In this document: positions 1-13,052 of the stretch, piece after piece
How positions within the stretch are numbered: the stretch's first letter is position 1
Layout of the letters: each line of letters starts with the position of its first letter
NCBI GenBank assembly: GCA_003577105.1
Contig: QEUQ01000063.1
Location: forward strand, 1-13,052
Direction of reading: 5' to 3'
DNA length: 13,052 bases
Source of the DNA: Acidobacteriota bacterium
Lineage (GTDB): Bacteria; Actinomycetota; Acidimicrobiia; ATN3
Made by a program: the position numbers and the translations under genes
The notes under the pieces: model-generated
Databases searched by the model: none
What the model was told of the DNA's origin: nothing
Seen by the model: only the letters and a program-made list of their open reading frames with translations

Positions 1-576
1 GGCCGTTGCGGAATGCTCGGCAAGAATGCTTCGGAGCGCTTGCCGACCGGCCTGCTGAACCGATTCCGCGACCGAGATCGCTTCGTCGACGCGTGAGATG
101 AGGTCGACGATGCGGCGCTGCTCGGGCAGCGGCGGCAGCACAACACTGAGCGAGCGAAGACTCGCTGAGTTGAGCGTCTTGCCTTTGACTGCCCGACCAG
201 CATGCGCAGCGATATCACTGGCTTCGAGGTACAGGCCCAAGTAGCGTTGATCGGCGATGTCCAGGTTGGGATCAATCCAAACGATTGCTTCATTCGGGAA
301 GATGTCGCGCGCCGCGAACCCGATGCGGCCCAGGGTTAGCTTGAAGCTCATCAGCAAACTGCCCGCTGGCACCCGGCGCGCTTTGCCTTCGTCTTCAGCA
401 ATTCTGGTCACGCCCTCGCTGTGAGGGTCAACACGCAGTTGTTTCATGTCGGCAATCGTGCAGAAAGGGCGGTCGAGACTGGCCGTCCAATAGCGAGGCT
501 CGTTTCGAGGTGGTGTCTTCCCGATTGTCAACACGGCTATCTCGCCGAGGGTTGTTTCGACCCATCCATCACGCAT
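1..576 (-). CDS. hsdS: Type I restriction-modification specificity subunit HsdS, N-terminal part (gene continues beyond window start)
   Basis: Minus-strand translation from ATG (revcomp of cat at 574-576) reads MRDGWVETTLGEIAVLTIGKTPPRNEPRYW...SLSVVLPPLPEQRRIVDLISRVDEAISVAE.... The LPPLPEQRRIV plus conserved central helix is the HsdS (Methylase_S) inter-TRD signature. The ATG overlaps the hsdM stop by 8 nt (ATGCGTGA). Not in the ORF track because it is truncated by the window edge. Confidence 0.85.
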   Translation of the reverse strand, partial: MRDGWVETTLGEIAVLTIGKTPPRNEPRYWTASLDRPFCTIADMKQLRVDPHSEGVTRIAEDEGKARRVPAGSLLMSFKLTLGRIGFAARDIFPNEAIVWIDPNLDIADQRYLGLYLEASDIAAHAGRAVKGKTLNSASLRSLSVVLPPLPEQRRIVDLISRVDEAISVAESVQQAGRQALRSILAEHSATA

Positions 577-2062
577 ATCCAGCTTCTTTCAACCGCTCAG
601 CAAGTCGCTCCTCCGCCTCGCGCAAGGCAGTCTGGGCCGCCGCGAGTTCTTCAAGCGCCGTCGGCACATCGACGACTTCTTCCGATTCGCTTCGCAGGTA
701 CCGGCCGATGTTGAGATCCCATCCGTTTTCTTTGATCTCGGCATGGGGCACGAGGCGAACACCGACACCACCGTCGCCGTCGGGGTCATCCCCGCCGCGG
801 TATGCGGCAACGATCATCTCGACGTCCGAATCCGACATCTGATTCTGGTTGCGCCCCTTCTCGAAGCGGGCCGACGCATCCACAAAGAGCACGCCGCCCT
901 TTCGCGGATCGGGCTTCTCGGATCTGAAAATCAGCAAGCACGCGGGGATCGACGTCGAGTAAAAGAGGTTGGGCGGCAGGCCGATCACTGCTTCGAGTTC
1001 GTCACTGGTGATGAGGCACTCGCGGATCGCTTTCTCGGCGCCTCCCCGAAACAGCACACCGTGGGGCATGACGACGCCGACTCGCCCTGTGCCCGGGTGC
1101 ATCGAGGCCAACATGTGCTGAACCCATGCGTAGTCAGCATTGCCTGCCGGTGGCACACCGCACTCCGCACGCCCCCAGGGGTCGCTCTTCCAGACATCTG
1201 CCCCCCAGTTCTTCAGGCTGAAGGGCGGATTGGTGATCACTACATCGAAGCGGGCGAGGTGGCCGTGGTCATCTCGGAACTTCGGCTCACGCAGCGTGTC
1301 GCCGCGCAGGACCTTCGCATCTTCAATGTCATGTAAGTAGAGGTTCATGCGGGCGATCGCCGATGTGGTCAGGCTGACCTCTTGGCCGTAGAGGCGGAGC
1401 GTGTGGATCTCTCCCCCGGCCTCGGCCACCTCGTTGACGGCTTCGACCAACATGCCGCCCGATCCGCAAGCCGGGTCATAGATGGTCTCGCCGGGCTTGG
1501 GGTCGAGGATGCGGGTAAGCAGGCGCACGACTGCACGGGGTGTGAAGAATTCACCGGCCTTCTTGCCTGACTCATCCGCAAATTGTTTGAGCAGGTACTC
1601 ATACGCGTTACCCAGTAAGTCGTGCCCGACCTTCGAGGGTGAGAGATCGAGTTCGTTGAACGCGTCGATGAGGTTGAGAAGTGAGGTTTCGGGGAGGCGC
1701 TCCTTGTTGCCCCATGGAACGTCGCCGAAGATCCCGGCGAGGGTCTCGGGGTTGGCCTCTTGTATGCGGTCGAGAATGCGCTGAAGCTCGACGCCGACGT
1801 TCTCGGTCGCCTTCCGGAGGTCGTGCCAAGTGCACCCCTCAGGTACTTGGAAACGGTAGTTCTCGGGGAGAGCTGCGAGCTTCTCGTCGCCGTCGAAGAG
1901 TTCGAGCGCGGCGGCACGTTCCTCTCGATAGGTGTCGCTGATCCGCTTGAAGAAAAGGATCGGGAATATGTACGCCTTGAAATCAGACGGATCTACCGGG
2001 CCTCGTAGCGAATTGGCGGCAGCCCATAGGCGTGATTCAAGTTCTTGGAGTGTGATCGACAG
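569..2062 (-). CDS. hsdM: Type I restriction-modification N6-adenine DNA methyltransferase subunit HsdM; 5' end uncertain (no canonical start codon, CTG at 2062 proposed)
   Basis: Track ORF 569..1528 contains motif I DPACGSGGML and motif IV VVITNPPFS. Manual extension of the same frame upstream of 1528 stays open to a TAG at 2090-2092. It encodes canonical HsdM N-terminal sequence (SITLQELESRLWAAANSLRGPVDPSDFKAYIFPILFFKRISDTYREE ... LLGNAYEYLLKQFADESGKKAGEFFTPRAVV). No ATG/GTG/TTG occurs in frame between 2090 and 1528. A GGGAGG Shine-Dalgarno lies 8 nt upstream of a CTG at 2062. Confidence 0.85.
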   Translation of the reverse strand: MSITLQELESRLWAAANSLRGPVDPSDFKAYIFPILFFKRISDTYREERAAALELFDGDEKLAALPENYRFQVPEGCTWHDLRKATENVGVELQRILDRIQEANPETLAGIFGDVPWGNKERLPETSLLNLIDAFNELDLSPSKVGHDLLGNAYEYLLKQFADESGKKAGEFFTPRAVVRLLTRILDPKPGETIYDPACGSGGMLVEAVNEVAEAGGEIHTLRLYGQEVSLTTSAIARMNLYLHDIEDAKVLRGDTLREPKFRDDHGHLARFDVVITNPPFSLKNWGADVWKSDPWGRAECGVPPAGNADYAWVQHMLASMHPGTGRVGVVMPHGVLFRGGAEKAIRECLITSDELEAVIGLPPNLFYSTSIPACLLIFRSEKPDPRKGGVLFVDASARFEKGRNQNQMSDSDVEMIVAAYRGGDDPDGDGGVGVRLVPHAEIKENGWDLNIGRYLRSESEEVVDVPTALEELAAAQTALREAEERLAERLKEAGYA

Positions 2063-2120
2063 TTCGCGGCCCTCCCAGCTAGATCGCGTCTACTGCATCA
2101 ATAGAGACTAACGACGACAT

Positions 2121-2149
2121 GTGACATTCCGTCAGTGCAATGCCGTCAC
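2121..2149 (-). promoter_or_regulatory. Inverted repeat GTGAC-N19-GTCAC with internal CCGTCA x2, in the AT-richer 83-nt spacer between the HEPN-like gene stop and hsdM
   Basis: Read directly: gtgacattccgtcagtgcaatgccgtcac. It overlaps the TGA stop (2146-2148) of the upstream gene. The local GC drop relative to flanks suggests an hsdM promoter/operator or intercistronic hairpin. Confidence 0.3.
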
Positions 2150-3294
2150 CCTTCATTCGAACCACTGCCCCCATTCGAATCTAGCGCTGCAATCATGCGT
2201 TCTCGAGCCCGGCAATCGCTTGCCTCACTGAGGAGCCGCGAATAGATGGAATCCCCGGTGCCCTTCATGCCGGGCGGTTCGGCGAAGAAGTCCTCTTGGT
2301 CGGCCAGACACTCGAAGCTATCGATGCGATCAGAGTCTGAGTCAGTCAGGGTGTAGTAGCCCAGTTCCTGAAGCTTCACCTTGGCCACTAGGGGGAACGC
2401 AATCGCGGCGAGGATCAAGTGCTCCTGCTGATTCCAGGCTTGATTCTGAGCCGAATTGCGTTTGCCGTGCGCGTACTCGTTGCGTAGCCGATAGAACTCG
2501 TGCATCCAAGCCCACCGTAGGTTTCGGGAGTCATCGCCCTTGCAGTTCGGTCGGCGAGCAGACTGCGCACAGGCAACGTTTTCGGCAGGCGTAAGCGCGC
2601 GGTCAAACGCGTCAGCCAAGTCGTCGGCCTTCGACTGCGCTTCGAGGAGCCGCTGAAACGAACCCGCCATCAAGACCCATTCGGCTTCCGGCCCGATGTC
2701 ATCAGAATCGGTGTTCGCAGCATTGAAGCCCAGAATCGCGTCGTGCCAGCGCCGATATGGTTCAGGAAATCCCGACCTAAGATCGCAGAGGGCGATCCAC
2801 AGCGGCTCGTCAATGCGAATCCGACCTTTCACTGCGACCTGGATCGGTTCGCTGATCGCAAGACCGGTGGTCGACTGGGCGTGTAGCGCCCGACCTTCGC
2901 GAACACGGGGCGCGAGAGTCACGAATCCACCGGAGCCGAGCCTCTGTTGATAGAACGTGAATCGAGTCGCGTTCGCGTAGTCCAGTGAGCCGAAGAACGC
3001 CCGGCGCGACAGCGAAGCGAAACAAGCCAACTCAACCATGGTCCTCGCGGTGTCCAACTCCTCGTCTGTCAAGTCTTCAAGCGCTGAGCGGCCACTGAAC
3101 TGCACCAAGGTGCAGCCGGGAACTGGTGCTCCTTGAAGCGTGCGGTAGGACGACATCACATTGCGAACGGCGGCTAGTTCTGCGTCGTCGAGCTCGTCGT
3201 GATCAGTCTCCAAATTCGCGATTGGGAGCAGCTCGATCTCGCCCGCCACGTACTTCTTGGCAGCGACCATCCATGGGAGTACTTGGGCGATCAT
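2146..3294 (-). CDS. Hypothetical 382-aa protein with HEPN-like RNxxxH motif (candidate abortive-infection/defence effector linked to type I RM)
   Basis: Track ORF 2146..3414. The start is preferred at the internal ATG 3292-3294, which overlaps the TGA of the upstream HTH gene as TGATG (translational coupling), giving MIAQVLPWMVAAKKY.... The C-terminal region contains ...NLRWAWMHEFYRLRNEYAHGKRNSAQ..., which matches the R-N-x3-H (Rx4-6H) HEPN RNase signature. No other recognisable domain by eye. Its position, immediately 5' of and co-directional with hsdM, is typical of Abi/toxin genes embedded in RM loci. Confidence 0.55.
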   Translation of the reverse strand: MIAQVLPWMVAAKKYVAGEIELLPIANLETDHDELDDAELAAVRNVMSSYRTLQGAPVPGCTLVQFSGRSALEDLTDEELDTARTMVELACFASLSRRAFFGSLDYANATRFTFYQQRLGSGGFVTLAPRVREGRALHAQSTTGLAISEPIQVAVKGRIRIDEPLWIALCDLRSGFPEPYRRWHDAILGFNAANTDSDDIGPEAEWVLMAGSFQRLLEAQSKADDLADAFDRALTPAENVACAQSARRPNCKGDDSRNLRWAWMHEFYRLRNEYAHGKRNSAQNQAWNQQEHLILAAIAFPLVAKVKLQELGYYTLTDSDSDRIDSFECLADQEDFFAEPPGMKGTGDSIYSRLLSEASDCRARERMIAALDSNGGSGSNEG

Positions 3295-3485
3295 CACATG
3301 CTCTTCAGCCGACCGGTCGTCTTCGCCCATCGCTCCACATCGGACCACGACCAAATCATCGCTTGCTTCAGGGTGGCGACTGGCCTCGGGAAGTCCTCGT
3401 AACGCCGACGCCAAGAGTGGACCGTCTGAGGCTGTGCAATTCCGAGGCGCTCGGCAATCTCCGCGGCGCCAACCAGATCTCCCAC
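3294..3485 (-). CDS. Small excisionase/AlpA-type helix-turn-helix DNA-binding protein (HTH_17-like), about 63 aa
   Basis: This is the C-terminal 63 codons of the 308-aa track ORF 3294..4220. VGDLVGAAEIAERLGIAQPQTVHSWRRRYEDFPRPVATLKQAMIWSWSDVERWAKTTGRLKSM matches the actinobacterial excisionase-family HTH pattern (L.G.aEIAe.LGVsrqrV..l.r...FP.Pva.l..g.iW...dVe.Wa). A GTG start at 3483-3485 is preceded by AGGG with 5-nt spacing. The rest of the 308-aa ORF is antisense to the integrase-like gene and has a non-protein-like Ser/Arg composition. Confidence 0.6.
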   Translation of the reverse strand: MGDLVGAAEIAERLGIAQPQTVHSWRRRYEDFPRPVATLKQAMIWSWSDVERWAKTTGRLKSM

Positions 3486-3529
3486 TTCAACCCTGTGCGA
3501 TGACAATTCATCTCCGTTTGGCTTGCATA

Positions 3530-3622
3530 CAGCCGTAGGCACTGGTAGGCTGCACCGATGGCTACGGCTGTAGCCGAGCATAACAGCAAGCGGCCCCGGC
3601 GGTGCGCTAACACCCCGGGGCC
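3530..3622. promoter_or_regulatory. Divergent intergenic region with two inverted repeats (CAGCCGTAG-N23-CTACGGCTG; GGCCCCGG-N15-CCGGGGCC)
   Basis: Read directly at 3530-3570 and 3592-3622. The region lies between the divergently transcribed HTH gene (start 3485, minus) and the integrase-like gene (start 3637/3651, plus). Confidence 0.35.
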
Positions 3623-3636
3623 CGGTCAAGACCTGT

Positions 3637-4551
3637 ATGAGAGGTCCCGACGTGAAAGAGCATAGACCTGACAGCGAGGCACTCCCCGCGGCTTTCGAGC
3701 TGGCCGCCGCGCGGCTCGACGACCTTGCGCTGAGCGACCAGAGCGATCGCGTAATGCAACGGCTCTGGGCTCGTTTTGCCTCGTACACCAAGCGCTGCGG
3801 CATCGTCGCGGCCAGAGACATCAACGCCGAGGTCGTCTCGGGATTCGTTCGCGCTCGCGCTGGGTCCGGGTCGGTTCCGTCGGCGTCGACGATGCATCTG
3901 CGGCGCTCCGCCCTCCGGCTTCTGTTTCGAATTTGGCGAGAATGCGAGCTGGCTACCGGCGACCCCACACTGGATCTTGCCCTCCCCGCGCGCTCACAGC
4001 TCGGTGTTCGCCCGCTCACCGACGACGAGGTCGCTATTTGCCGGTGGGCGTCGCTGTCGACTCCCGCCGAGACCCGCCAGCCCGCAACCTGGGCGGCCGC
4101 CGAGGCAGGACTGACCACCGGCGAGATCCCGCTGCTCAGCGGTTCCGATCTCGACCTCGACTCAGCGATCTTGAGCGCTCCGGGCACGACCAAGACTGAT
4201 CCGCGCAGCGTGCCGATCACCGCATGGGGCGTCGCGCAGCTGTGCCGGCGAATAGCGGTGATCGGCGACCCCGGTATGCCCCTCTGTTACGAAGGCACCG
4301 CGGGCGCCGAGTCCGGACAGGCGTCGGTCTGTCGGGCGATCGCTGACGTACTTCGCCGCGCGGGCCTCGCCGACGAACCCGATGTGCGTCCGCGCTCGGT
4401 CACCGCGTGGGTAGGGGTCCAGGTTTTCGTCGAGACTGAAAGCATCGAAGAGGTCGCGCGCCGTCTCGGCATGCGATCACTGGATCGAACCGCCTCGCTC
4501 ATCGGTCACGACTGGCGGACGAGCATCAATTGCTCGGGCGGGAAAAGCTGA
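3637..4551 (+). CDS. Tyrosine-recombinase (phage integrase)-fold protein with apparently degenerate catalytic residues
   Basis: Track ORF. An alternative GTG start at 3651 has AGAGG 7 nt upstream. The N-terminal half resembles the integrase core-binding/SAM-like domain (MHLRRSALRLLFRIWRECELATGDPTLDLALP...RPLTDDEVAICRWAS, compare sAlRsFFrwl...np...l..pk...lp..Lt.eEv..ll). The C-terminal half has box-I-like AGLTTGEIPLLSGSDLDLDSAIL and TTKTDPRSVPI (compare GLRxSEl..L...Did......i and KggKeR.vPl). By my by-eye alignment the expected catalytic Arg, His-x-x-Arg-His and Tyr positions read T, V-R-P-R-S and G/H. Confidence 0.55.
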   Translation: MRGPDVKEHRPDSEALPAAFELAAARLDDLALSDQSDRVMQRLWARFASYTKRCGIVAARDINAEVVSGFVRARAGSGSVPSASTMHLRRSALRLLFRIWRECELATGDPTLDLALPARSQLGVRPLTDDEVAICRWASLSTPAETRQPATWAAAEAGLTTGEIPLLSGSDLDLDSAILSAPGTTKTDPRSVPITAWGVAQLCRRIAVIGDPGMPLCYEGTAGAESGQASVCRAIADVLRRAGLADEPDVRPRSVTAWVGVQVFVETESIEEVARRLGMRSLDRTASLIGHDWRTSINCSGGKS

Positions 4552-5957
4552 TGGCCGCACGCGCATCCGGCGTTTCGAGCCTCGAACAGGTCGAGGCGGT
4601 GCTTGGAAATCCCGCCATCTACGAGCTGGCGGAGGTCATCGAGACCGAAAGTGAGCTGGGCGGGCGACGTCTCACGTACCCGACCTACATGCTCTTGGTC
4701 TACGAGTCCCTCATCTCGGTCTATCGCTCCGCGCGTCGAGTCGAGACCGAGATCGGCCACCCCCTGGTCTGGTCATTCATGCGCGAAGTTGTTGTGGCTC
4801 GCTTTGCTCACGACTCGGAGATGTGGCTTCCAGATGAACCGATGCGGCGCCACCACTACCTCTACGGGAGAGACCGGTACCTGGTGCCAAACCGGGAGTT
4901 ACTGAGAGACCTGTTCGAGAAGATCTCATGTCGCCAGGCGACCGGGGACCTCAGCCTCTGCGCGAAAGACGGGCCGGGTTCGCCCACCCATCCTCATCCG
5001 ACCCGGATGCTCTATGCCGACGGCAAGGTTGTGACACCACTCTTCAAGGCGAAGCCGGGCACGACAAAGGTCGACAAGACAACGGGTGAGGTCCGCCAGG
5101 TTCGATCCGAGCCTGACGCGGCACTGCACGTCACGGGCTCAGGCGAGCCGGCGTGGGGGACCAAGCACGTCATGGTGGCTACGCGCGGAGACGACGTCCA
5201 CTGCCGGATGATCCTCTCGGTCTCCCCTGTCGAGCGCCCCGGCCAAGAGGCCAAAGTCGCTCTCGAGCGAATCGGGTCACTGGCGGCCAAACTCTCAGGC
5301 GCGACAGGTGTGATCTACGACGGAGCCTTTCGGGGCGCCCACATTGCCGAGCTCATGCACGACCGCGGGCTGCTCCCCGTCGTCCCGGTCCAAGCCAAGT
5401 CGGGCGGCAAGCGGGCACGAAAGGCGCGCGTCGAGCGTTCGGTCCGGATCGGTGAGGCGAGCTTGCGCCGAGCCGATGGCACGAGGATCACCGTGCAGCT
5501 CTATGCGGAGGCCGGCGCGCTCTGCATCGGCGAGCTGGATGAGGCCGGCGCGGTGGTGATGACGCCACTTCAGCGCCTCAAAGTCGAGCAGCGCAGGAAC
5601 GTTGACGGCACCTGGCGTTGGTACGGGGTGTATTCGGTGCCGGCGCCGACGGGTCCGGGAACCGTCAGAGTCCGGCTGGACACCACAGACGAGGACCGCG
5701 CCCGGAGCTTCAACCGCTGCGAGCACTTGCGGGCGATTCCACCGTCTGATCCCGACTATCGCCGCCTCTGTCCGATGCGCTCGGACGCCGAGTCGATCAA
5801 CCGCCACCTCGACGACACGATGTGGCTGAGCCGCGCGCACTCGCTCGGGCGCGACCGCCAGCTCGTCAACCTCATCGGCTACGGGCTGGCGGTCAACTCA
5901 CTCGCGCTCCATCGATACAGGCGCAACCTGGCGCCGCCTGGCGCGCTCGCGGCCTGA
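4551..5957 (+). CDS. DDE transposase-like protein (IS4/IS5-superfamily-like C-terminal signature)
   Basis: Track ORF 4530..5957 with TTG at 4530. The start is preferred at ATG 4551-4553, which overlaps the upstream TGA as ATGA. The C-terminus reads DYRRLCPMRSDAESINRHLDDTMWLSRAHSLGRDRQLVNLIGYGLAVNSLALHRYRR. This fits the Y-x-R-x3-E ... LlAyNL.R tail of IS4/IS5/IS701-type transposases. Candidate DDE aspartates lie in GTKHVMVATRGDDVH and GVIYDGAFRG. Antisense ORFs over this span have Arg/Ser-rich junk composition. Confidence 0.55.
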   Translation: MAARASGVSSLEQVEAVLGNPAIYELAEVIETESELGGRRLTYPTYMLLVYESLISVYRSARRVETEIGHPLVWSFMREVVVARFAHDSEMWLPDEPMRRHHYLYGRDRYLVPNRELLRDLFEKISCRQATGDLSLCAKDGPGSPTHPHPTRMLYADGKVVTPLFKAKPGTTKVDKTTGEVRQVRSEPDAALHVTGSGEPAWGTKHVMVATRGDDVHCRMILSVSPVERPGQEAKVALERIGSLAAKLSGATGVIYDGAFRGAHIAELMHDRGLLPVVPVQAKSGGKRARKARVERSVRIGEASLRRADGTRITVQLYAEAGALCIGELDEAGAVVMTPLQRLKVEQRRNVDGTWRWYGVYSVPAPTGPGTVRVRLDTTDEDRARSFNRCEHLRAIPPSDPDYRRLCPMRSDAESINRHLDDTMWLSRAHSLGRDRQLVNLIGYGLAVNSLALHRYRRNLAPPGALAA

Positions 5958-5967
5958 AGGCCGCGCA

Positions 5968-5988
5968 TCCCAAGAGCTGAACTCCACG
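5968..5988 (+). terminator. Hairpin GCTGAAC-tccacgg-GTTCAGC 11 nt after the transposase-like stop (candidate terminator, no U-tract)
   Basis: Read directly. 7-bp stem, 7-nt loop, immediately downstream of the TGA at 5955-5957. Confidence 0.3.
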
Positions 5989-6132
5989 GGTTCAGCGCGC
6001 TCCGACATCGCACTACGCGTTGCGGGGCGAGTTTCGCGCATCCGACAGCGACCCCGAGGCCGGTACGATTGGCTCCACAACCGCCAGGTAGGCAGGTGAG
6101 CGGAGTTTTCTACCACCTTTTCTACCGGCCCC

Positions 6133-6205
6133 GCCCGCGTAGCTCAGGGGATAGAGCACCGGTTTCCTAAACCGGGTGTCGCAAGTTCGATTCTTGCCGC
6201 GGGCG
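6133..6205 (+). tRNA. tRNA-Arg (anticodon CCT)
   Basis: Manual cloverleaf: acceptor GCCCGCG/CGCGGGC (7 bp); D-arm GCTC-AGGGGATA-GAGC; anticodon arm CCGGT-TTCCTAA-ACCGG (U33, anticodon CCT, A37); variable loop GTGTC; T-arm GCAAG-TTCGATT-CTTGC; discriminator G. 73 nt, CCA not encoded. The antisense ORF 6013..6321 shows the classic tRNA-antisense translation artefact. Confidence 0.9.
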
Positions 6206-6235
6206 CACTGCCGCAAGGGCACTCGTGCCGACAAA

Positions 6236-6914
6236 TCACCTGAACACCACCTCGAGGTCCGTGATCGCAACGACCTCGATCTTCCCAGCCAATGAATAAG
6301 ACCGCCGGCCGGGATAGACAACCTTCAACTCATCGAGGCCCAGATCGTCGATTGCTATGTGCATTGATCTAGTCGTTGATGGCGCATCCGAATACTTGAA
6401 CTCGAACCCGATACGCCTAGTCCCCCTGAATACCAACAGATCGAGTTCAGCGCTGGCCTGCGTGCCCCAGAAATAAGCATCCCGTGAGTTCACCAAATCG
6501 ACTTGCTCCGACCTCGCGGATGTCGAACCCGCTCATATCGACTAACCCCGCACGGCCCGCGAGAGATTCCGATGCGCCCTTCACCAGGCCTGGAGCCGCG
6601 CTCCCGAGAAGAAGGAATCGCGCCGCGGTTCGTGGTCGGTCGGCAAGCACCCGCACCACTTCGAAAATGCCGGGTACGCGCTGAATCTCATCGATGACGA
6701 CGAGTCCCCGCAGGCCTTCTAAGGCCAGCATCGGATTCTGGAAACGAGCCGCGTCGGCCGAATCTTCGAGGTCGAAGTACTCTGCCCGGCGATCCGCGGC
6801 AATCTGTCGCGCGAGTGTCGTCTTGCCACACTGGCGGGGGCCCAACGGGACTGCAACCGGTCCGAACTTGAGGGCGGCTCACACCCTCGCCTCAAGGATA
6901 TTTCGTTCGATCAT
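6236..6914 (-). pseudogene. Disrupted AAA ATPase (AAA_14 + DUF4143 family) with in-frame TGA at codon 12 and a downstream frame break
   Basis: Minus strand from ATG (6912-6914) reads MIERNILEARV-TGA(6879-6881)-AALKFGPVAVPLGPRQCGKTTLARQIAA...LVVIDEIQRVPGIFEVVRVLADRP...LLLGSAAPGL...SESLAGRAGL (track ORF 6447..6845). The C-terminal DUF4143-like part SRDAYFWGTQASAELDLLVF...IGFEFKYSD...VVYPG continues in a different frame (track ORF 6236..6496). Total length is well below the usual roughly 380-400 aa, suggesting internal deletion as well. Confidence 0.6.
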
Positions 6915-6927
6915 GTGAAACTATATT

Positions 6928-6964
6928 CCTTGTATATCCGTAGCTAGGATACGGATTTACAAGG
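6928..6964. promoter_or_regulatory. 37-bp near-perfect palindrome (15-bp arms, 1 mismatch, 7-nt CTAG-containing centre) in an AT-rich divergent promoter region
   Basis: CCTTGTATATCCGTA-GCTAGGA-TACGGATTTACAAGG read directly. Local GC is far below the window background. It sits 13 nt upstream of the ATPase-pseudogene ATG and about 118 nt upstream of the hemolysin-III ATG. Confidence 0.45.
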
Positions 6965-7081
6965 ATTCCACACGCACTTGCCTGGAATTTGGATCGGCCT
7001 CCACGACACGCGCCGAGGGTCGTATTCGCGCCGTGTAACGTATTGATCCCCCTTAGTCACCGACAAGCAGAACGACATTCC

Positions 7082-7750
7082 ATGGAAACCGAAACAATCG
7101 ACAGAGAAGCAGTAGCACAACGTGAGCCATCGCTCGGAGAGGAGATCGCCAACGCGGTAACGCATTCGGTCGGCGCAGTAGCAAGCATCGTTGCGCTCGT
7201 CATCTTGGCAATCGTCGCAAGCCGCAAGAGCCCGATCGCGCTCGTCGCGTTTTGCGTCTTCGGTGCCTCGATGATCGCTCTCTACACGGCCTCGGCGATC
7301 TATCACGCGCTGCCGAAGTCAAAGGCCAAGGAGGTCTTCTTCAGACTCGACCACGCTGCGATTTACCTGCTAATTGCAGGCACCTACACGCCGTTCACAC
7401 TGGGGGTGCTGCGAGGTGGATGGGGCTGGACCCTCTTCACGCTCCAGTGGAGTTTGGCTGCGGTCGGAATTACCTTCAAGAGCATCTACGGCAACCGTTG
7501 GCGCGGACTGTCAATGGCCGTCTACATCATGATGGGCTGGATGATGATCGTTGCGATTTGGCCAATGGTTCAGCGGGTGCCGGCATCGGGATTGGCCCTG
7601 ATCCTAGCGGGTGGTCTCTTCTATACGGGCGGCACGATCTTCAACGCGATCCAGCGCCTTCGCTTCAATCACATGCTCTGGCACATCTTCGTGCTGATCG
7701 GGAGCGGCTTCTGCTTCTTTGCCGTTCTTAACTACGCGATGCCCGCCTGA
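7082..7750 (+). CDS. Hemolysin III family (HlyIII/YqfA/PAQR) integral membrane protein
   Basis: Track ORF 6989..7750. The start is preferred at ATG 7082 (METETIDRE...). Seven hydrophobic segments and family motifs are present: LYTASAIYHALPKSKAKEVFFRLDHAAIYLLIAGTYTPF ... MGWMMIVAIWPMV ... FNHMLWHIFVLIGSGFCFFAV. 222 aa, the typical length. Confidence 0.85.
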   Translation: METETIDREAVAQREPSLGEEIANAVTHSVGAVASIVALVILAIVASRKSPIALVAFCVFGASMIALYTASAIYHALPKSKAKEVFFRLDHAAIYLLIAGTYTPFTLGVLRGGWGWTLFTLQWSLAAVGITFKSIYGNRWRGLSMAVYIMMGWMMIVAIWPMVQRVPASGLALILAGGLFYTGGTIFNAIQRLRFNHMLWHIFVLIGSGFCFFAVLNYAMPA

Positions 7751-7766
7751 GGATAAATGGGGTTTC

Positions 7767-7955
7767 GTGATTCAGAATGACCGCGATTGCGGAAACATTG
7801 CCGCTGTAGTTCGGGACCTCGCAGACCAAGCAGAGCGTCCGAATGACCCAACGGATGACCCTTTCTATCGTCACGCCGTCGCTGCCAAGAAGGGCAGCGG
7901 ACGCAAGTACGCAGCAGAGGCTGCAAAGCGACAGCTCCATCGGCGCGGCCATTGA
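7767..7955 (+). CDS. Possible small basic hypothetical protein (about 62 aa); may be non-coding
   Basis: Part of track ORF 7719..7955; GTG at 7767. Lys/Arg-rich C-terminus (AAKKGSGRKYAAEAAKRQLHRRGH). Third-position GC is only moderate and no recognisable domain is seen. Confidence 0.2.
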   Translation: MIQNDRDCGNIAAVVRDLADQAERPNDPTDDPFYRHAVAAKKGSGRKYAAEAAKRQLHRRGH

Positions 7956-8036
7956 ACCTCGTCCTAGTCGATTCGAGCGCGTTCCTGTCGCCCGAAGATC
8001 CAGGCGAGCAAGACCACTCATCCACTCTCAACGCCC

Positions 8037-8891
8037 TTGAGACTGAATTCGGGGCATTCCGCGTCATCCCATAGGATTCGCGGCGACAAGATCACGGCTC
8101 AGACGAGCAGACAGCGGCTAGGCAAAGGCGTGACAACGTTGGAGTCCACGTTCACATCGCACAACGGCATCGAGATCGCCTATTTCACCGAGGGATGCGG
8201 TGAGCCTGTGATACTTGTCCACGGCTTCGCCGCCAACGCCAAGCTCAACTGGGTGGGACCACAAGTCGTGAGCGACCTCACCGCTCACGGAAGGCAAGTG
8301 ATCGCCCCAGACACGAGAGGTCACGGCGCATCGGACAAGCCGACCGACCCAGAGGCCTATAGCTACGACAACCTGGCAGCTGACGTCATGGGCCTCGCCG
8401 ATCACCTCGGCCTTGATACATACGACCTCGTTGGGTACTCCATGGGAGCAATGACTTCACTGCGAATTGGCGCGATCGACCCGAGAGTGCGCCGAGTGAT
8501 CTACGGGGGCATAGGCGGCAACGTGCTCATTCCGAATGCGCTCAACCGCGATCTACTAGCCGATTCGCTCAAGCCCGACGCGACCGAAGACGACATGACC
8601 CCCCTTGGCAAGCTGTTCAGAGCGTTCGCCGAGGCTTCGGGCGCCGACCTGAACGCTCTCGCGGCGTGTCAACGCGCACGGAAGGTCACGCCGAACCCGG
8701 CAGACATCAAGGCCGAGGCTCTTGTCTTAGTCGGAAATGATGACTGGCTTGCCGGGCCCGCGGAGCCCCTGGCCGAAGCGATCCCGGGCGCAATCCACAA
8801 GACGGTTCCCGGCGACCACACGACCTGCCTGTTTCAACCCGAGTTTCGAGAAGCTGTCAACGAATTCCTAACGAACTCGACAGGTGCCTGA
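8037..8891 (+). CDS. Alpha/beta-fold hydrolase (start likely internal near 8129-8138)
   Basis: Track ORF. Contains the HGF oxyanion-hole region (VILVHGFAANAKLNW), the nucleophile elbow G-Y-S-M-G (VGYSMGA) and a C-terminal GDHT... with the His. The first about 30 codons (MRLNSGHSASSHRIRGDK...) look like a non-native leader. GTG 8129 or TTG 8138 (MTTLESTF / MESTF...) is more plausible. Confidence 0.8.
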   Translation: MRLNSGHSASSHRIRGDKITAQTSRQRLGKGVTTLESTFTSHNGIEIAYFTEGCGEPVILVHGFAANAKLNWVGPQVVSDLTAHGRQVIAPDTRGHGASDKPTDPEAYSYDNLAADVMGLADHLGLDTYDLVGYSMGAMTSLRIGAIDPRVRRVIYGGIGGNVLIPNALNRDLLADSLKPDATEDDMTPLGKLFRAFAEASGADLNALAACQRARKVTPNPADIKAEALVLVGNDDWLAGPAEPLAEAIPGAIHKTVPGDHTTCLFQPEFREAVNEFLTNSTGA

Positions 8892-8935
8892 TACAGGCGA
8901 GCATCGGTCGACAAAGTGCGGCCTTCGGCTCCAGA

Positions 8936-9289
8936 CTAGTCGGAAAAGCGCTGGTGAGCAGCTTGACGGCTAGTTCCGAGCGCCGCTCCGATCTGCTCCC
9001 AAGTCACGTTCTTCTGGCGCAGCGCCCCCACCTGATCGCGCAGGCTTCGCTCGGCGGCGGAAACCGCGAATGAAGCTGGCGCAAGCCGATCCAGCAGCCG
9101 GTCGGCGTCAAGAGCGGCAGGTCCCGGAAAGCTCGGGATCTTCTTCCCCTTGATTGCCCGCTGACTGAGTTCGGTGCATGCGTCGCAGATGTAGACGCCG
9201 GGGCCGGCAACAAGCGCCTTCACTTCGTGTTCAGATCCGTAACAAAACGAGCAATAGAGGGTGCCCGTGTCGGGTCTCTTCGCTGCCAT
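8936..9289 (-). CDS. ClpX-type C4 zinc-finger domain protein with C-terminal HTH-like segment
   Basis: Track [34 protein letters not shown] matches the ClpX N-terminal zinc-binding motif (CSFCGKsq.ev.kLiaGp.v.ICdeCv.lc). The C-terminus [22 protein letters not shown] is HTH/sigma-region-4-like. AGGAGA lies 7 nt upstream of the ATG at 9289. Confidence 0.7.
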
Positions 9290-9345
9290 CGGCGCTCTCC
9301 TGACTTCAACGGACTCCGGCTAGCTGACGCGACCGGTTGTGCCGC

Positions 9346-9392
9346 TGTCAAGATAGGCTTGACAAGCGCCGGTTGTCAAGTACACCTTGACA
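9346..9392 (-). promoter_or_regulatory. Sigma70-like promoter (minus strand: -35 TTGACA 9379-9374, 18-nt spacer, -10 TATCTT 9355-9350) overlaid by two TGTCAAG-N5-CTTGACA palindromes (9346-9364 and 9374-9392)
   Basis: Read directly. The two 7-5-7 palindromes are identical in their arms and centred 28 bp apart. They lie about 55-100 nt upstream of the ClpX-ZnF/HTH gene start. Confidence 0.4.
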
Positions 9393-9431
9393 TGCCCGCT
9401 TGAGCTGCCCTTCTGCGGTGCTTATCCCCTT

Positions 9432-10211
9432 CTATGGCGCCGCGCGGAGATCGCCCTTGGTGGTCATGATGCTGAAGCTCGCACCCGCGGGATCGGCCAC
9501 TACGGCAAATCGCCCCGGCGGAATATCCATCGGCGGCACGATCACGGATCCGCCTAGTTCCTTGACCTTCTCGGCGGTCGCGTCGCAATCATCAGACGCG
9601 AAATAGACACCCCAATACGACGGAACTTCATCTGGGAGCATTGGAGGCCGAGGCATCATGCCTGCGACCGGAGTCTCACCGAGCTTGAATTCCGTGTATT
9701 CCATGCCCCCGGCACTTGATGTTTCGGACTCCCAGCCGAAGACGCTCCCATAGAAGCGGGATGCGTCGTCTAGCTGGTCCGTCGTGAGTTCGGCCCAGAC
9801 GAACGTGCCCTCTTCTCCGACGAGTCCTGCCCCTTTGTGATCCGCCGGCTCCCACACGGAGATGAACGCGCCGACCGAGTCCTGGAAGACAGCCATAGTC
9901 CCAGCATCCATGACTTGCATGGGTGGCATCGCGACCTGCCCGCCATTGTCTTGGACGAGTTTGGCAACCGCCGCCGCGTCTTCGACGGTCACATATACCG
10001 TCCAATAGGGCGGACCGGGGCTTTGCTGAGGACCAAGGCCGGCAACAGGCTCGCCATCGAGTGAGGCCATCGCGTATCCGCCGGCGTCAGGGCCCATATC
10101 TTCAATTTGCCAGCCGAAAAGCCCGCTGTAGAACTCCGTTGCGGCTGCGATGTCTGGAATTCCGAGATCTACCCAGCTTGGAGTACCTGGGGTGTAGCTG
10201 TCGACGTGCAT
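9432..10211 (-). CDS. Two-domain VOC (glyoxalase/bleomycin-resistance/dioxygenase) family protein
   Basis: Track ORF 9432..10379. The start is preferred at ATG 10209-10211 (MHVDSYTPG...), preceded by GGGAGG at 5-nt spacing. Two repeated halves each carry the VOC pattern (WVDLGIPDIAAATEFYSGLFGW... and VWAELTTDQLDDASRFYGSVFGW...) and metal-ligand-like H/E positions. Confidence 0.8.
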   Translation of the reverse strand: MHVDSYTPGTPSWVDLGIPDIAAATEFYSGLFGWQIEDMGPDAGGYAMASLDGEPVAGLGPQQSPGPPYWTVYVTVEDAAAVAKLVQDNGGQVAMPPMQVMDAGTMAVFQDSVGAFISVWEPADHKGAGLVGEEGTFVWAELTTDQLDDASRFYGSVFGWESETSSAGGMEYTEFKLGETPVAGMMPRPPMLPDEVPSYWGVYFASDDCDATAEKVKELGGSVIVPPMDIPPGRFAVVADPAGASFSIMTTKGDLRAAP

Positions 10212-10245
10212 GTGAGCCTCCCGCTTCGCGAAGCCGGGCCAATCT

Positions 10246-10285
10246 GGGCCGGGCAATCCGGCCGCTTGGGCCGGGCAATCCGGCC
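10246..10285. repeat. Tandem direct repeat 2 x GGGCCGGGCAATCCGGCC (22-bp period), each copy an internal GGCCGG-gcaat-CCGGCC hairpin; a degenerate third copy upstream (10235-10245)
   Basis: Read directly in the divergent VOC/flotillin intergenic region. It falls inside the non-coding N-terminal extension of the 315-aa track ORF. Confidence 0.5.
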
Positions 10286-10405
10286 TCCACTCCATGCTAG
10301 TCCAGATGAGATGCCCACCGAACCGCGAAACCACAGGCGGAGGACTCGAGACCTGGCTAACATCAGTAGTCAGTAACATCCCGTCGCGCCTAACTGAGAG
10401 AGCTG

Positions 10406-12454
10406 GTGGATATCTTCCTAATTGGTCTCGCAGCCGTCATTTTCCTGACAGTCGTAATGTCGATTCACAAGATAGGCGAGACGCAAGTCGGACTCGTCAC
10501 GAAGCGCCTATCCTTCAAGAAACTGCGCGAAGACAACGTGATCGCCATGAACGGTGAGGCGGGTTTTCAGGCCGACCTGCTAATGCCCGGACTCCGGTGG
10601 AAGTTCTGGCCGGTCTACAAGATCCACAAGCATCCGTGGGTGCAGGTCCCTGCCGGTGAGATCGGAGTCGTGATTTCTCAAGTTGGCGCGAGTCTTCCGA
10701 TCGGAGCCAAGAGCGCCACCTACCGCAATGAGTTCGGTAACTTCTCTGACTTGAAAGCGTTCCTCGCCGCAGGCGGGCAGAAGGGTGTGCAGCGGCCGGT
10801 CCTGCCCCCTGGAACCCTCGTTCCGATGCACCCCGTCGGCTTCATGGTGATCACCGCCGCAAAGGTTTACGGAGTTCCGGTTTCTCCCGAATTCCGCAAA
10901 CTAGCAGAGGACGGTCACCTCCTTCCTCAGTCATTTGGTCTTAGTCCCGATCAACTCCGCGTTGTCGTAATTGCGCCGCAGGGCGAGCAGGACATGATCG
11001 GAATCGTGACCGCGCTCGAGGGCGAGCCCCTGCCGTCGGGAGACATTGCGAGTCGCCTTGGGGGGTTCGCCGATATTGCCGACCTCGAGGCAAACCAGGC
11101 CCACGATGCCCAGATCATGGAGATCCTGCTCGGAAGCAAGAACACGCTCCACAACAACTATCAGGACTACCAAGCGTTCCTCGAGGCGGGCGGCAAGATC
11201 GGACTTCAGCACGATCCCCTCCTCTATGGCGCGTACTTGCTCAACCCATTCCTCGTCAGAGTCGAAATGGTGCCGATGCTCGTCGTTCGTCAAGGCGAGG
11301 TTGCCGTTGTCAAAGCCTTCGTGGGGTTGCCGACGCTCGACACATCAGGAGCCGAATTCAAGTTCGGATCCATCGTGAGGCCGGGGCACCGAGGCATCTG
11401 GCAAGAACCTCTGCGCACGGGCAAGTACCCGATTAACCCGAGGGTCTATGCCTCGGAGATAGTGCCGACGTCGATTCTCACCCTGAACTGGGCGTCGACT
11501 TCTTCAACGGCGCACAACCTTGATGCTCACCTGTCCTCGATCATGGGCAAGAGCCGCGAAGGCTTCGTCTTCACAATCGACCTCCAAGTCCAGATCCATG
11601 TGCCGGATACGAGGGCGCCAAAGGTCATTTCAATGGTGGGAACCATGATGAACCTGGTGAATGAGGTTCTTCAGTCGGCTGTTGGCAACCACTTCCGAAA
11701 CACACTTCAGTCGCTCGAAGCAGTGCGCTTCATTGAGACTCGAGAAGAGGTACAGCTAGCGGCAGTCGACGCGATCCGTGGATACCTGAGCGCGTACGAA
11801 GTTGAAACCAAGGGTGTCTACATACAGGACGTGATCTTCCCGGAGGAGCTTGTCGAAGTCTTGACTCGCCGGGAGATTGCCAACCAAGAGAAGGCAACGT
11901 TCCTCGAGCAACAGCGAGCACAGATGGCTCGAGTCGACATGGAGAACGCCAAAGGTACGGCGGATATGCAGGCTCAGCTAGCCCAAGCGGAAGTAAGCGT
12001 GTCGATCCGGCGCAATGAGGCGGATGCGCGTGAGCAGGAGGCCAGAGGCGTAGCGACTTACACAGTTCAGACCGGCGAAGCTGAAGCGACCCGCGTTCAG
12101 GCGATCGGACTTGCCGAGGCCAAGGCAGTCGAAGCGCTGGGCCTGGCCAAGGCCGAAGGGTACGAGGCTCAGAAGGACGCGATTGGTCCGGGGGCAACCG
12201 CAATGGTCGCGGTTGCAGGTGCGATTGCCGACGGGAAGATCGACATCATGCCCGAGGTGCTCGTCACTGGCGGAAACGGCGGCGGCGCCTTCGAAGGGCT
12301 CGCCGCAACTGCAATGAACTACCTGGTAAACAACGGCGCCATCTCCCGCGATGAGTCGTCGGAGGACGACGGCGAAGGTGCGGATGCCGGACGAGAAGCG
12401 ATTGGCGCCGGCGCTGCGAACGACACCGCTTCAGCGGCTAGTGGGAGTTCTTAG
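10406..12454 (+). CDS. Flotillin-like SPFH/Band-7 domain membrane protein (YqiK/FloT-like), 682 aa
   Basis: Track ORF, GTG start. N-terminal TM helix MDIFLIGLAAVIFLTVVMSI, then a long SPFH-type region. Then a Glu/Ala-rich coiled-coil flotillin segment (AQLAQAEVSVSIRRNEADAREQEARGVATYTVQTGEAEATRVQAIGLAEAKAVEALGLAKAEGYEAQ). Ends in an acidic low-complexity tail. Confidence 0.85.
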   Translation: MDIFLIGLAAVIFLTVVMSIHKIGETQVGLVTKRLSFKKLREDNVIAMNGEAGFQADLLMPGLRWKFWPVYKIHKHPWVQVPAGEIGVVISQVGASLPIGAKSATYRNEFGNFSDLKAFLAAGGQKGVQRPVLPPGTLVPMHPVGFMVITAAKVYGVPVSPEFRKLAEDGHLLPQSFGLSPDQLRVVVIAPQGEQDMIGIVTALEGEPLPSGDIASRLGGFADIADLEANQAHDAQIMEILLGSKNTLHNNYQDYQAFLEAGGKIGLQHDPLLYGAYLLNPFLVRVEMVPMLVVRQGEVAVVKAFVGLPTLDTSGAEFKFGSIVRPGHRGIWQEPLRTGKYPINPRVYASEIVPTSILTLNWASTSSTAHNLDAHLSSIMGKSREGFVFTIDLQVQIHVPDTRAPKVISMVGTMMNLVNEVLQSAVGNHFRNTLQSLEAVRFIETREEVQLAAVDAIRGYLSAYEVETKGVYIQDVIFPEELVEVLTRREIANQEKATFLEQQRAQMARVDMENAKGTADMQAQLAQAEVSVSIRRNEADAREQEARGVATYTVQTGEAEATRVQAIGLAEAKAVEALGLAKAEGYEAQKDAIGPGATAMVAVAGAIADGKIDIMPEVLVTGGNGGGAFEGLAATAMNYLVNNGAISRDESSEDDGEGADAGREAIGAGAANDTASAASGSS

Positions 12455-12737
12455 CTTCCTCTACTTCAGAAATGACATTTTCAAAGCCGCCGAACTGCTC
12501 GACGATCTTCACGCCGGGGCACCTGGCATTCGCGGTCTCGATTAGGCGGTTTCGGCTGTCGGCGTCTATGCCCCTGCCTAGCACCACTATGTCAACGCGC
12601 GCATTCCGCAATGTCTCAATTGCATCGTCGTCGCTGATTTCTCCAGAGGCGGCGTAGCCGCGAGTTCGAAGGGCCTCTGTCGCCCGTGCAACCTCGTCAG
12701 ACTTGCGGCCAACAACGAGAACATTCGCCGTGATCAC
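12438..12737 (-). CDS. Hypothetical 99-aa protein with degenerate receiver (CheY-like)/flavodoxin-like fold pattern
   Basis: Track ORF 12438..12755. The start is preferred at GTG 12735-12737 with AGGAG at 5-nt spacing. MITANVLVVGRKSDEVARATEALRTRGYAA...DIVVLGRGIDADS...CPGVKIV follows the beta-alpha periodicity of a receiver domain. However, it has GRKS in place of the acidic pair and G in place of the phospho-acceptor Asp. Lies 62 nt downstream of the SDR gene, same strand. Its 3' end overlaps the flotillin gene 3' end convergently by 17 nt. Confidence 0.45.
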   Translation of the reverse strand: MITANVLVVGRKSDEVARATEALRTRGYAASGEISDDDAIETLRNARVDIVVLGRGIDADSRNRLIETANARCPGVKIVEQFGGFENVISEVEEAKNSH

Positions 12738-12817
12738 CTTGACTCCTGACTGCATTTGGCTTCGCTACGATATCGGCGAATCGGCTCGCGCGGGAGTGGA
12801 TTCGCGCGAAGGTCGGT

Positions 12818-13052
12818 TCAGTGAAGCGTCGTTAGGCCCCCGTCAACCGCCAGAACCTGCCCGCTTATGAAACTCGCCTCGCCCGAAAGCAGAAAAACGA
12901 CCACGTAGGCAACTTCCCACGCGCTCCCCTGGCGCCCAATAGGAACCGGCACTCCCTCGCGGTCCGGGTTCATGGCTGAGGCCATTCGCCCCAAGGGCGT
13001 GTCGATGAGACCGGGGGCAATGAGGTTGGCCCTGGCGCCCTCGCGAGTCCCC
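12818..13052 (-). CDS. Short-chain dehydrogenase/reductase (SDR) family oxidoreductase, C-terminal fragment (gene continues beyond window end)
   Basis: Minus-strand translation from the window edge: ...ANLIAPGLIDTPLGRMASAMNPDREGVPVPIGRQGSAWEVAYVVVFLLSGEASFISGQVLAVDGGLTTLH, stop TGA at 12818-12820. This is the classic SDR C-terminal signature (IAPG.i.Tpl...P.gR.g...Eva..v.fL.sd.asfitGq.l.vdGG). Confidence 0.8.
   Translation of the reverse strand, partial: GTREGARANLIAPGLIDTPLGRMASAMNPDREGVPVPIGRQGSAWEVAYVVVFLLSGEASFISGQVLAVDGGLTTLH

Follow-up and report, generated by a model that had tools for sequence, protein, structure and literature searches.

What is encoded by the 382-codon open reading frame (ORF) that lies directly 5' of hsdM, the methylase gene of a type I restriction-modification (RM) operon, on contig QEUQ01000063.1 of an Acidobacteriota bacterium assembly (GCA_003577105.1), and does its product work together with that of the small helix-turn-helix (HTH) gene that it overlaps? 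An earlier note on this stretch (positions 1 to 13,052 of the contig, hereafter the window) had proposed that the ORF, here called X, encodes a HEPN-type RNase, and that it forms with the HTH gene a regulator or antitoxin and effector pair guarding, or guarded by, the RM system. Our analysis places X in a large family whose members repeatedly precede adenine-methylase genes, and indicates that X is probably a HEPN-type accessory (abortive-infection) effector and not one half of an HTH/HEPN toxin-antitoxin pair.

The gene model comes first. X occupies 2146-3294 on the minus strand; its ATG (3294-3292) opens with the A (3294) that closes the TGA stop codon of the HTH ORF (3296-3294), and its own stop, TGA 2148-2146, follows after 382 codons. 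The TGATG stop/start overlap at 3292-3296, which the earlier note had described as coupling the two genes, is confirmed by direct reading of the sequence. Public annotation starts X 12 codons earlier, at ATG 3330, giving 394 amino acids (aa). In homologues, however, the protein starts where the 382-aa form does (M1 aligns in 82% of members; P7 and W8 are invariant), which makes the gene model with the TGATG overlap the better one.

The X protein has no match in direct scans of Pfam, NCBIfam and PADLOC, and profile searches of Protein Data Bank (PDB) sequences with alignments of 5 and 100 sequences returned only noise or no match; X is thus as uncharacterised as had been supposed, and PADLOC, one of the checks proposed for it, recognises no known system in it. 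An exhaustive hidden Markov model search of 1.84 billion representatives nevertheless recovers a family of 1,175 clusters (50% identity) at E ≤ 1e-3, or 368 at E ≤ 1e-30, whose members are nearly all full-length (370-400 aa) and, where the source names them, are always called 'hypothetical protein'. Word-indexed homology searching under-reports this family, finding four relatives, or 5 matches even with the 100-sequence profile. The family was not found named in two papers on Hma systems, nor in the survey of BREX and BREX-related (BR) systems or those of its supplements that were examined, and no relatives of X were found in 50,697 phage records and 2.9 million viral contigs. It is a cellular family, mobile and patchily distributed.

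Within this family the most conserved feature is the Rx4H motif on which the HEPN proposal was founded. The motif, RWAWMHEFYRLRNEYAHGKRN, is present in X, with the codons of R271-N-E-Y-A-H276 at 2467-2484 on the minus strand (R271 at 2484-2482, H276 at 2469-2467), and in two sets of diverse family members every sequence has both R271 and H276 (138/138 and 100/100), so that the motif is a selected feature and not a chance string. The residue after R271 is G in 59% of members and N in 33%; the RNxxxH form seen in the window is hence the minority RN variant of an invariant Rx4H, and the consensus reads R-[G/N]-x-x-A-H-G, with A275 at 88% and G277 at 98% among 138 members. Close by, H292 and W287 are conserved at 99% and 98%. 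The invariant columns across 100-138 members are P7, W8, D196, W263, R271 and H276, and those conserved at 90% or more include R98, Y106, N108, R130, R132, G134 and P150, which together with P7 and W8 make up the conserved positions of the N-terminal domain described below, as well as D162, F190, N191, N194, E205 and G277.

An AlphaFold 2 model of X built on the 100-sequence alignment (predicted local distance difference test score, pLDDT, 95.4; predicted template modelling score, pTM, 0.94) has two domains, an alpha+beta domain of residues ~1-160 (2815-3294, minus strand) and an all-helical, HEPN-like domain of residues ~163-375 (2170-2808, minus strand); a model made with five sequences reached a pLDDT of 36 and was unusable. 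The Rx4H motif closes helix 259-275 on its C-terminal side; next come a loop carrying W287 and a long helix (289-310) starting E291-H292, a placement that would fit the H3/H4 layout of HEPN domains described for ApeA and HepT (ApeA preprint). Foldseek comparison of X with PDB and BFVD gave nothing significant; the best matches of the C-terminal domain at low root-mean-square deviation (rmsd) are minimal HEPN toxins (7ae2, 8xdj, 5yep), and nothing matches the N-terminal domain in structure or in sequence. An N-terminal part that matches nothing therefore does exist, as the earlier note had claimed, but in the model it is an alpha+beta domain of ~160 residues and not a stretch of roughly 300. 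When 100 family members were compared with Pfam at E ≤ 10, the only recurrent family was HEPN_Apea, with 8 members matching (best E 0.0012), and all other families were matched by one or two members. We also considered whether X could be the PglZ or iSTAND component of a Type-3 BR system and rejected this, as X has neither an alpha/beta/alpha phosphatase-like nor a P-loop-like fold and matches neither.

The genomic neighbourhoods of the family supply the second line of evidence. We collected 26 X loci from species-representative genomes (Acidobacteriota, Nitrospirota, Desulfobacterota, Gammaproteobacteria, Planctomycetota, Actinomycetota, Binatia and others) and 75 further loci from a metagenome scan, 60 of which were informative in having at least 600 nucleotides (nt) downstream. 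X lies directly 5' of a co-directional adenine-methylase gene in 38 of the 87 informative loci (about 44%), involving at least three unrelated methyltransferase (MTase) types, and the suggested association of this protein with RM-like defence loci thus extends to its family. The methylase is usually HmaB, of the Hma or "BREX-related" systems, and in two cases the hsdM of unrelated type I systems; among the metagenome loci a co-directional adenine MTase gene immediately follows X in 27/60 (26 HmaB, one hsdM). The gene pair is often translationally coupled. Neighbour clustering with PADLOC and NCBIfam models gave the order HmaA, X, HmaB, HmaC in 9/26 species genomes (L008, L009, L010, L012, L013, L014, L015, L017 and L018), with matches to the HmaA SNF2 helicase (5.5e-173), the HmaB DUF1156 adenine methylase (2e-109) and the HmaC DUF499 ATPase (2.6e-88). 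In five of these nine loci X and HmaB are joined by a stop/start overlap of 4 nt. Across the phyla that hold such loci HmaA keeps 66-76% identity, so that the four genes form a horizontally mobile unit.

Some of the Hma loci carry further genes. A conserved protein of ~320 aa is encoded between HmaB and HmaC in three of them (L008 14161-15129, L014 5567-6526, L017 15848-17008), a HEC-01A/B pair is inserted in L012 (8490-10318), and a PDC-M14B-like gene in L009 (9256-9936).

No Hma genes lie beside X in the window, where the operon is type I RM (hsdM, hsdS, hsdR). The same arrangement occurs at a second locus, L044, in which X (6992-8125) is followed by hsdM, hsdS and hsdR; with just 29-30% identity to the HsdM and HsdR of the window, L044 is an independent repeat of the X-hsdM arrangement. 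At L006 the MTase that X precedes is of another, DUF1156-like kind, and the island also encodes an Avs/Lamassu-like protein, at L030 a type IIG restriction endonuclease-methyltransferase lies two genes upstream of X, and at L011 an RmrA/CapP-like regulator lies downstream. The remaining species-genome loci are heterogeneous, some with defence and some with housekeeping neighbours, and of the plasmid copies of X, that on pMOL28 has an integrase neighbour and that from Microvirga an alpha/beta hydrolase. In a neighbour-joining tree the Hma-linked members fall mostly into one clade, and the window copy, L006 and L030 sit on separate branches; the link to methylase-based systems therefore arose several times. 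One X homologue, in a serine-recombinase island (L001), has a divergent neighbour of 507 aa (8473-9996, minus strand) with no Pfam match and an Rx4H-like string, YRLRNFAQH; this neighbour may be a second HEPN-like protein in that island.

These heterogeneous neighbourhoods, which make up about half of the loci, together with the absence of any significant match to a characterised protein, would suit a reading in which X is an unrelated stand-alone mobile-element gene, with its proximity to RM and Hma genes reflecting hitch-hiking in defence islands and its Rx4H serving a structural or some other catalytic, non-defence role. We consider this improbable, since a position immediately upstream of a co-directional adenine MTase in 38/87 loci, before at least three unrelated types, often with overlapping reading frames and in distinct parts of the tree, goes well beyond the specificity of co-localisation in an island.

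A stronger challenge comes from the Hma clade itself. HEPN RNases are known to be embedded in RM, BREX and BR loci, where they serve as backup or suicide effectors (PMC3710099; PMC12839542), over half of Type-1 BR systems have a DUF499 ATPase with a fused HEPN RNase, and standalone HEPN genes inside BREX/BR loci are proposed backup effectors (PMC12839542). In the X-containing Hma loci HmaC starts with its DUF499 N-terminus and carries no HEPN fusion, and X may there supply the HEPN function in trans. The same observation is compatible with the main rival explanation, in which X is an integral, non-RNase fourth subunit of methylase systems (a sensor, specificity or assembly factor) whose conserved R, H, W and D residues serve, for example, DNA or nucleotide binding or processing. 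This would also accommodate the strict placement of X directly before the MTase gene, with a 4-nt overlap, in the conserved Hma clade, the two recurrences before hsdM, the conserved Arg-rich patch (R130, R132) in the N-terminal domain and the weakness of the evidence for a HEPN fold. Against it, about 50% of X loci are without any MTase, which argues that X can act alone, and we regard it as rather unlikely.

The explanation that we favour, with moderate confidence, is that X is a single-chain, two-domain defence protein in which an alpha+beta N-terminal domain is joined to a diverged C-terminal HEPN-type ribonuclease, the whole acting as a latent abortive-infection effector. The invariant Rx4H, the all-helical C-terminal domain and the sub-threshold HEPN_Apea matches uphold the HEPN part of the original proposal, yet only in part, as there is no significant HEPN-clan profile match for either the window X or the family consensus. 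Several observations weigh against our explanation: the HEPN_Apea matches are all below the Pfam threshold, a Pfam scan of the family consensus gave no match, most members have R-G rather than R-N at the motif arginine, and roughly half of the loci have no detectable MTase or defence neighbour, from which it also follows that X is not an obligate RM component. A bolder version would make X a methylase guard: an obligate fourth component whose unprecedented N-terminal domain physically monitors the Hma/BR or type I RM modification complex, which releases its HEPN RNase upon inhibition of that complex by phage, and which three or more unrelated methylase types have each acquired separately; we think this doubtful.

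If X is the effector that we favour, its HEPN domain would be expected to act through R271 and H276 as predicted catalytic residues, and X would be kept latent in the cell, by analogy with PrrC/RloC and ApeA. Release might follow when a phage disturbs the neighbouring modification/restriction complex and a restraining contact is lost, as for PrrC-EcoprrI, or when the N-terminal domain, which may be a new sensor module, binds a ligand or nucleic acid, as for ApeA. Dimerisation through the HEPN domain could then create a composite R/H active site, and the active enzyme would cleave host RNA (tRNA being the precedent) and abort the infection.

Comparison with known systems helps to delimit what is new. 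ApeA, a single-protein anti-phage system of the HEPN kind (Pfam HEPN_Apea, PF18739), is predominantly helical (ApeA preprint). It has ~580 aa arranged as an N-terminal, a Mid and a split-HEPN part and forms decamers or dodecamers, whereas X has ~380 aa and an alpha+beta N-terminal domain; HEPN_Apea is absent from the Pfam matches of the window X and of the family consensus. PADLOC includes ApeA models, and neither X nor its L009 homologue has a PADLOC match. PrrC and RloC, the anticodon nucleases of type I/III RM loci, resemble X in context, as HEPN-type RNase genes within type I RM operons, the place that X takes both in the window and at L044. They are thought to fire when a phage disables restriction and have an N-terminal ABC-type ATPase domain, with prrC lying between hsdS and hsdR; X differs in having no Walker A/P-loop or ATPase family match, in its position 5' of hsdM and in sharing no sequence similarity with them. 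The HEPN modules of Hma/BR systems resemble X in location, since it sits between HmaA and HmaB in about 40% of its loci, but X is a protein in its own right (380 aa), has an N-terminal domain not shared with them and is always encoded directly before the MTase gene, and the system in the window is type I RM. Minimal HEPN toxins of the HEPN-MNT (HepT-MntA) kind provide the best low-rmsd matches of the C-terminal domain; they differ in being ~130 aa long and always accompanied by an MNT antitoxin gene, whereas no such partner gene is conserved beside X. What was known, then, is the presence of HEPN RNase effectors in RM, BREX and Hma loci; what is new is the X family, which falls outside ApeA, PrrC/RloC, HEPN-MNT and, at threshold, the Pfam HEPN families.

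The family spans many phyla and more than 1,000 clusters (50% identity) and, having no Pfam, NCBIfam or PADLOC model, is missed by current defence-finding pipelines. A HEPN effector in RM-like loci will not be conceptually surprising to the specialist; nonetheless, the position of X just before the methylase gene in at least three unrelated system types leads to a concrete, testable hypothesis of how RM-like systems may be linked to abortive infection. Hma systems are so far poorly understood in mechanism, and X becomes the candidate fourth gene of one clade of them.

Does X, then, need the HTH gene in front of it? The gene is real. It occupies 3294-3506 on the minus strand if started at TTG 3506 (70 aa), which has GGAG 5 nt upstream; the 63 aa from GTG 3485 that the earlier note had given it are only a minimum, and the longer form is more likely because homologues begin 4-5 residues before GTG 3485. 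The NCBI call for this protein is 82 aa. Its Pfam matches are Terminase_5 (the best; a gpP-like HTH), HTH_28 and, weakly, HTH_17 (E 0.13), and it belongs to an abundant and tightly conserved family of ~67-aa proteins (140 close homologues, 60-83% identity) that sources label AlpA (several), 'transposase-like' or gpP-like. Long contigs show its relatives in first place ahead of variable cargo: at L035 the HTH gene diverges from a Pfam Phage_integrase gene and the cargo includes SNF2 and DEAD helicases; at L041/L042 it diverges from homologues of two window genes introduced below, int304 (48%) and orf475 (55%), with a YD-repeat toxin as cargo; and at L037 the same module (int304 36%, orf475 35%) stands beside a type I RM system whose HsdR is 55% identical to that of the window. 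The L037 island has no X gene despite its type I RM.

In the window, int304 (3637-4551, plus strand), a weakly tyrosine-recombinase-like gene (Phage_int_SAM_1 0.007, XerC/D weak), and orf475 (4530-5957, plus strand), which has no family match beyond its homologues at L041/L042 and L037, run in one direction and the HTH gene, X and hsdMSR in the other. The int304 and orf475 genes overlap by 22 nt, and with the HTH gene they form a conserved three-gene module whose cargo differs between contigs; orf475 may encode an uncharacterised recombination or mobility protein. Just beyond orf475 lies a tRNA-Arg(CCT) gene (6133-6206, plus strand; ARAGORN and Rfam), the only match in an Rfam scan and a probable boundary of the island. 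Two copies of a 41-nt direct repeat, which share an exact core of 16 nt (ACGCGGGCGGGGCCGG), lie 12.7 kb apart: the copy at window 6100-6140 overlaps the 5' end of the tRNA-Arg gene, and in L002, a longer Logan assembly of the locus, the copies are at 4135-4175 and 16819-16859, the far one lying beyond hsdR and outside the window. These repeats are candidate att sites of the island. Given the shared module layout, the tRNA gene and the direct repeat, the HTH gene, a short MerR/Xis-type HTH gene beside an integrase-like gene at an island edge, is best read, on its sequence and context, as the AlpA/Xis-like gene of an integrative island in which X and the RM genes are cargo. It resembles known AlpA/Xis genes in its ~67-aa, MerR/Xis-like product, in its divergence from an integrase(-like) gene and in coming first before variable cargo; it differs in that its HTH_17 match is weak and its best match is Terminase_5. 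The HTH protein would accordingly be named the island's putative excisionase or regulator.

The HTH gene is not a consistent companion of X. Relatives of it were found near X in 0/108 other family loci (tblastn on 105 genome/metagenome loci, and 3 annotated plasmid loci), so that the two-gene co-occurrence expected of an HTH antitoxin and a HEPN toxin does not hold across the homologues of X; upstream of X, most family loci have either HmaA or a gene that varies. Conversely, HTH homologues 60-83% identical to that of the window precede helicases, a YD toxin and a type I RM system without X, and are linked instead to int304/orf475 or a Phage_integrase gene. The proposal that the HTH protein neutralises or represses a HEPN toxin in a toxin-antitoxin or regulator-effector pair guarding the RM system could draw on the TGATG coupling, on a weak likeness of the HTH protein to Xre/MbcA/ParS-type antitoxin HTH (Pfam E 0.034), PADLOC PDC-M06B and the MTase_I N-terminus, and on a structured palindromic leader upstream of the gene. 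The lack of co-occurrence largely refutes it, and we hold it to be very improbable; the role of partner that the earlier note assigned to the HTH gene accordingly falls away. The overlap of the two genes, we infer, reflects operon packing and not a toxin-antitoxin relationship.

The leader in question is the divergent intergenic region between the HTH gene and int304 (3507-3636), which holds two strong hairpins or palindromes: an imperfect inverted repeat of 31 nt (3516-3546/3554-3584) and a second at 3592-3599/3615-3622. Of the palindromes upstream of the HTH start, GGCCCCGG/CCGGGGCC is perfect. The minus-strand RNA of the 130-nt region (3507-3636) folds at -65.4 kcal/mol (z = -4.0), and this palindromic stretch possibly serves as operator or leader within the divergent int/HTH promoter region.

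Downstream of X, hsdM is intact in frame. The frame of hsdM (569-2062, minus strand; Pfam N6_Mtase 1.4e-82, TIGR00497 hsdM) opens at ~2074 and has no ATG, GTG or TTG before 1528, which is why gene callers shorten it to 319 aa. The first plausible start is CTG 2062, 8 nt past GGGAGG (2076-2071), and we take this codon as the probable start from the sequence. A frameshifted hsdM was considered and rejected, the frame being intact and only the start codon non-canonical. With the CTG 2062 start, hsdM is co-directional with X and begins 83 nt downstream of it, so the spacing reported earlier holds. The 5' part of hsdS (1-576, minus strand) extends beyond the window, and the genes that follow were taken from L002: hsdS (Methylase_S, 407 aa), hsdR (HSDR_N/ResIII, 1004 aa), a 396-aa ORF and a PIN gene. 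Window and L002 together thus hold adjacent, co-directional hsdM, hsdS and hsdR, a type I RM operon. A terminator and promoter scan of 1900-3800 gave no match, and since no terminator-like site separates the HTH gene, X and hsdM, the three are probably co-transcribed. In the window, X is cargo of an integrative island next to tRNA-Arg and is probably transcribed with hsdM-hsdS-hsdR behind the AlpA-like HTH gene of that island.

Three smaller features of the locus may be recorded. A tandem 14-nt direct repeat (GTGACATTCCGTCA / GTGCAATGCCGTCA) at window 2121-2148 spans the X stop codon in the spacer between X and hsdM. Directly after hsdR, outside the window (L002 13983-15173), lies the 396-aa ORF, which has no Pfam match and is followed by the small PIN-domain gene; the two are possibly further defence or toxin-antitoxin cargo of the same island. 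Finally, beside tRNA-Arg (window 6236-6845, minus strand), an AAA_14-type ATPase is split into overlapping ORFs of 132 and 86 aa; the gene, at the island junction, has probably been frameshifted or truncated.

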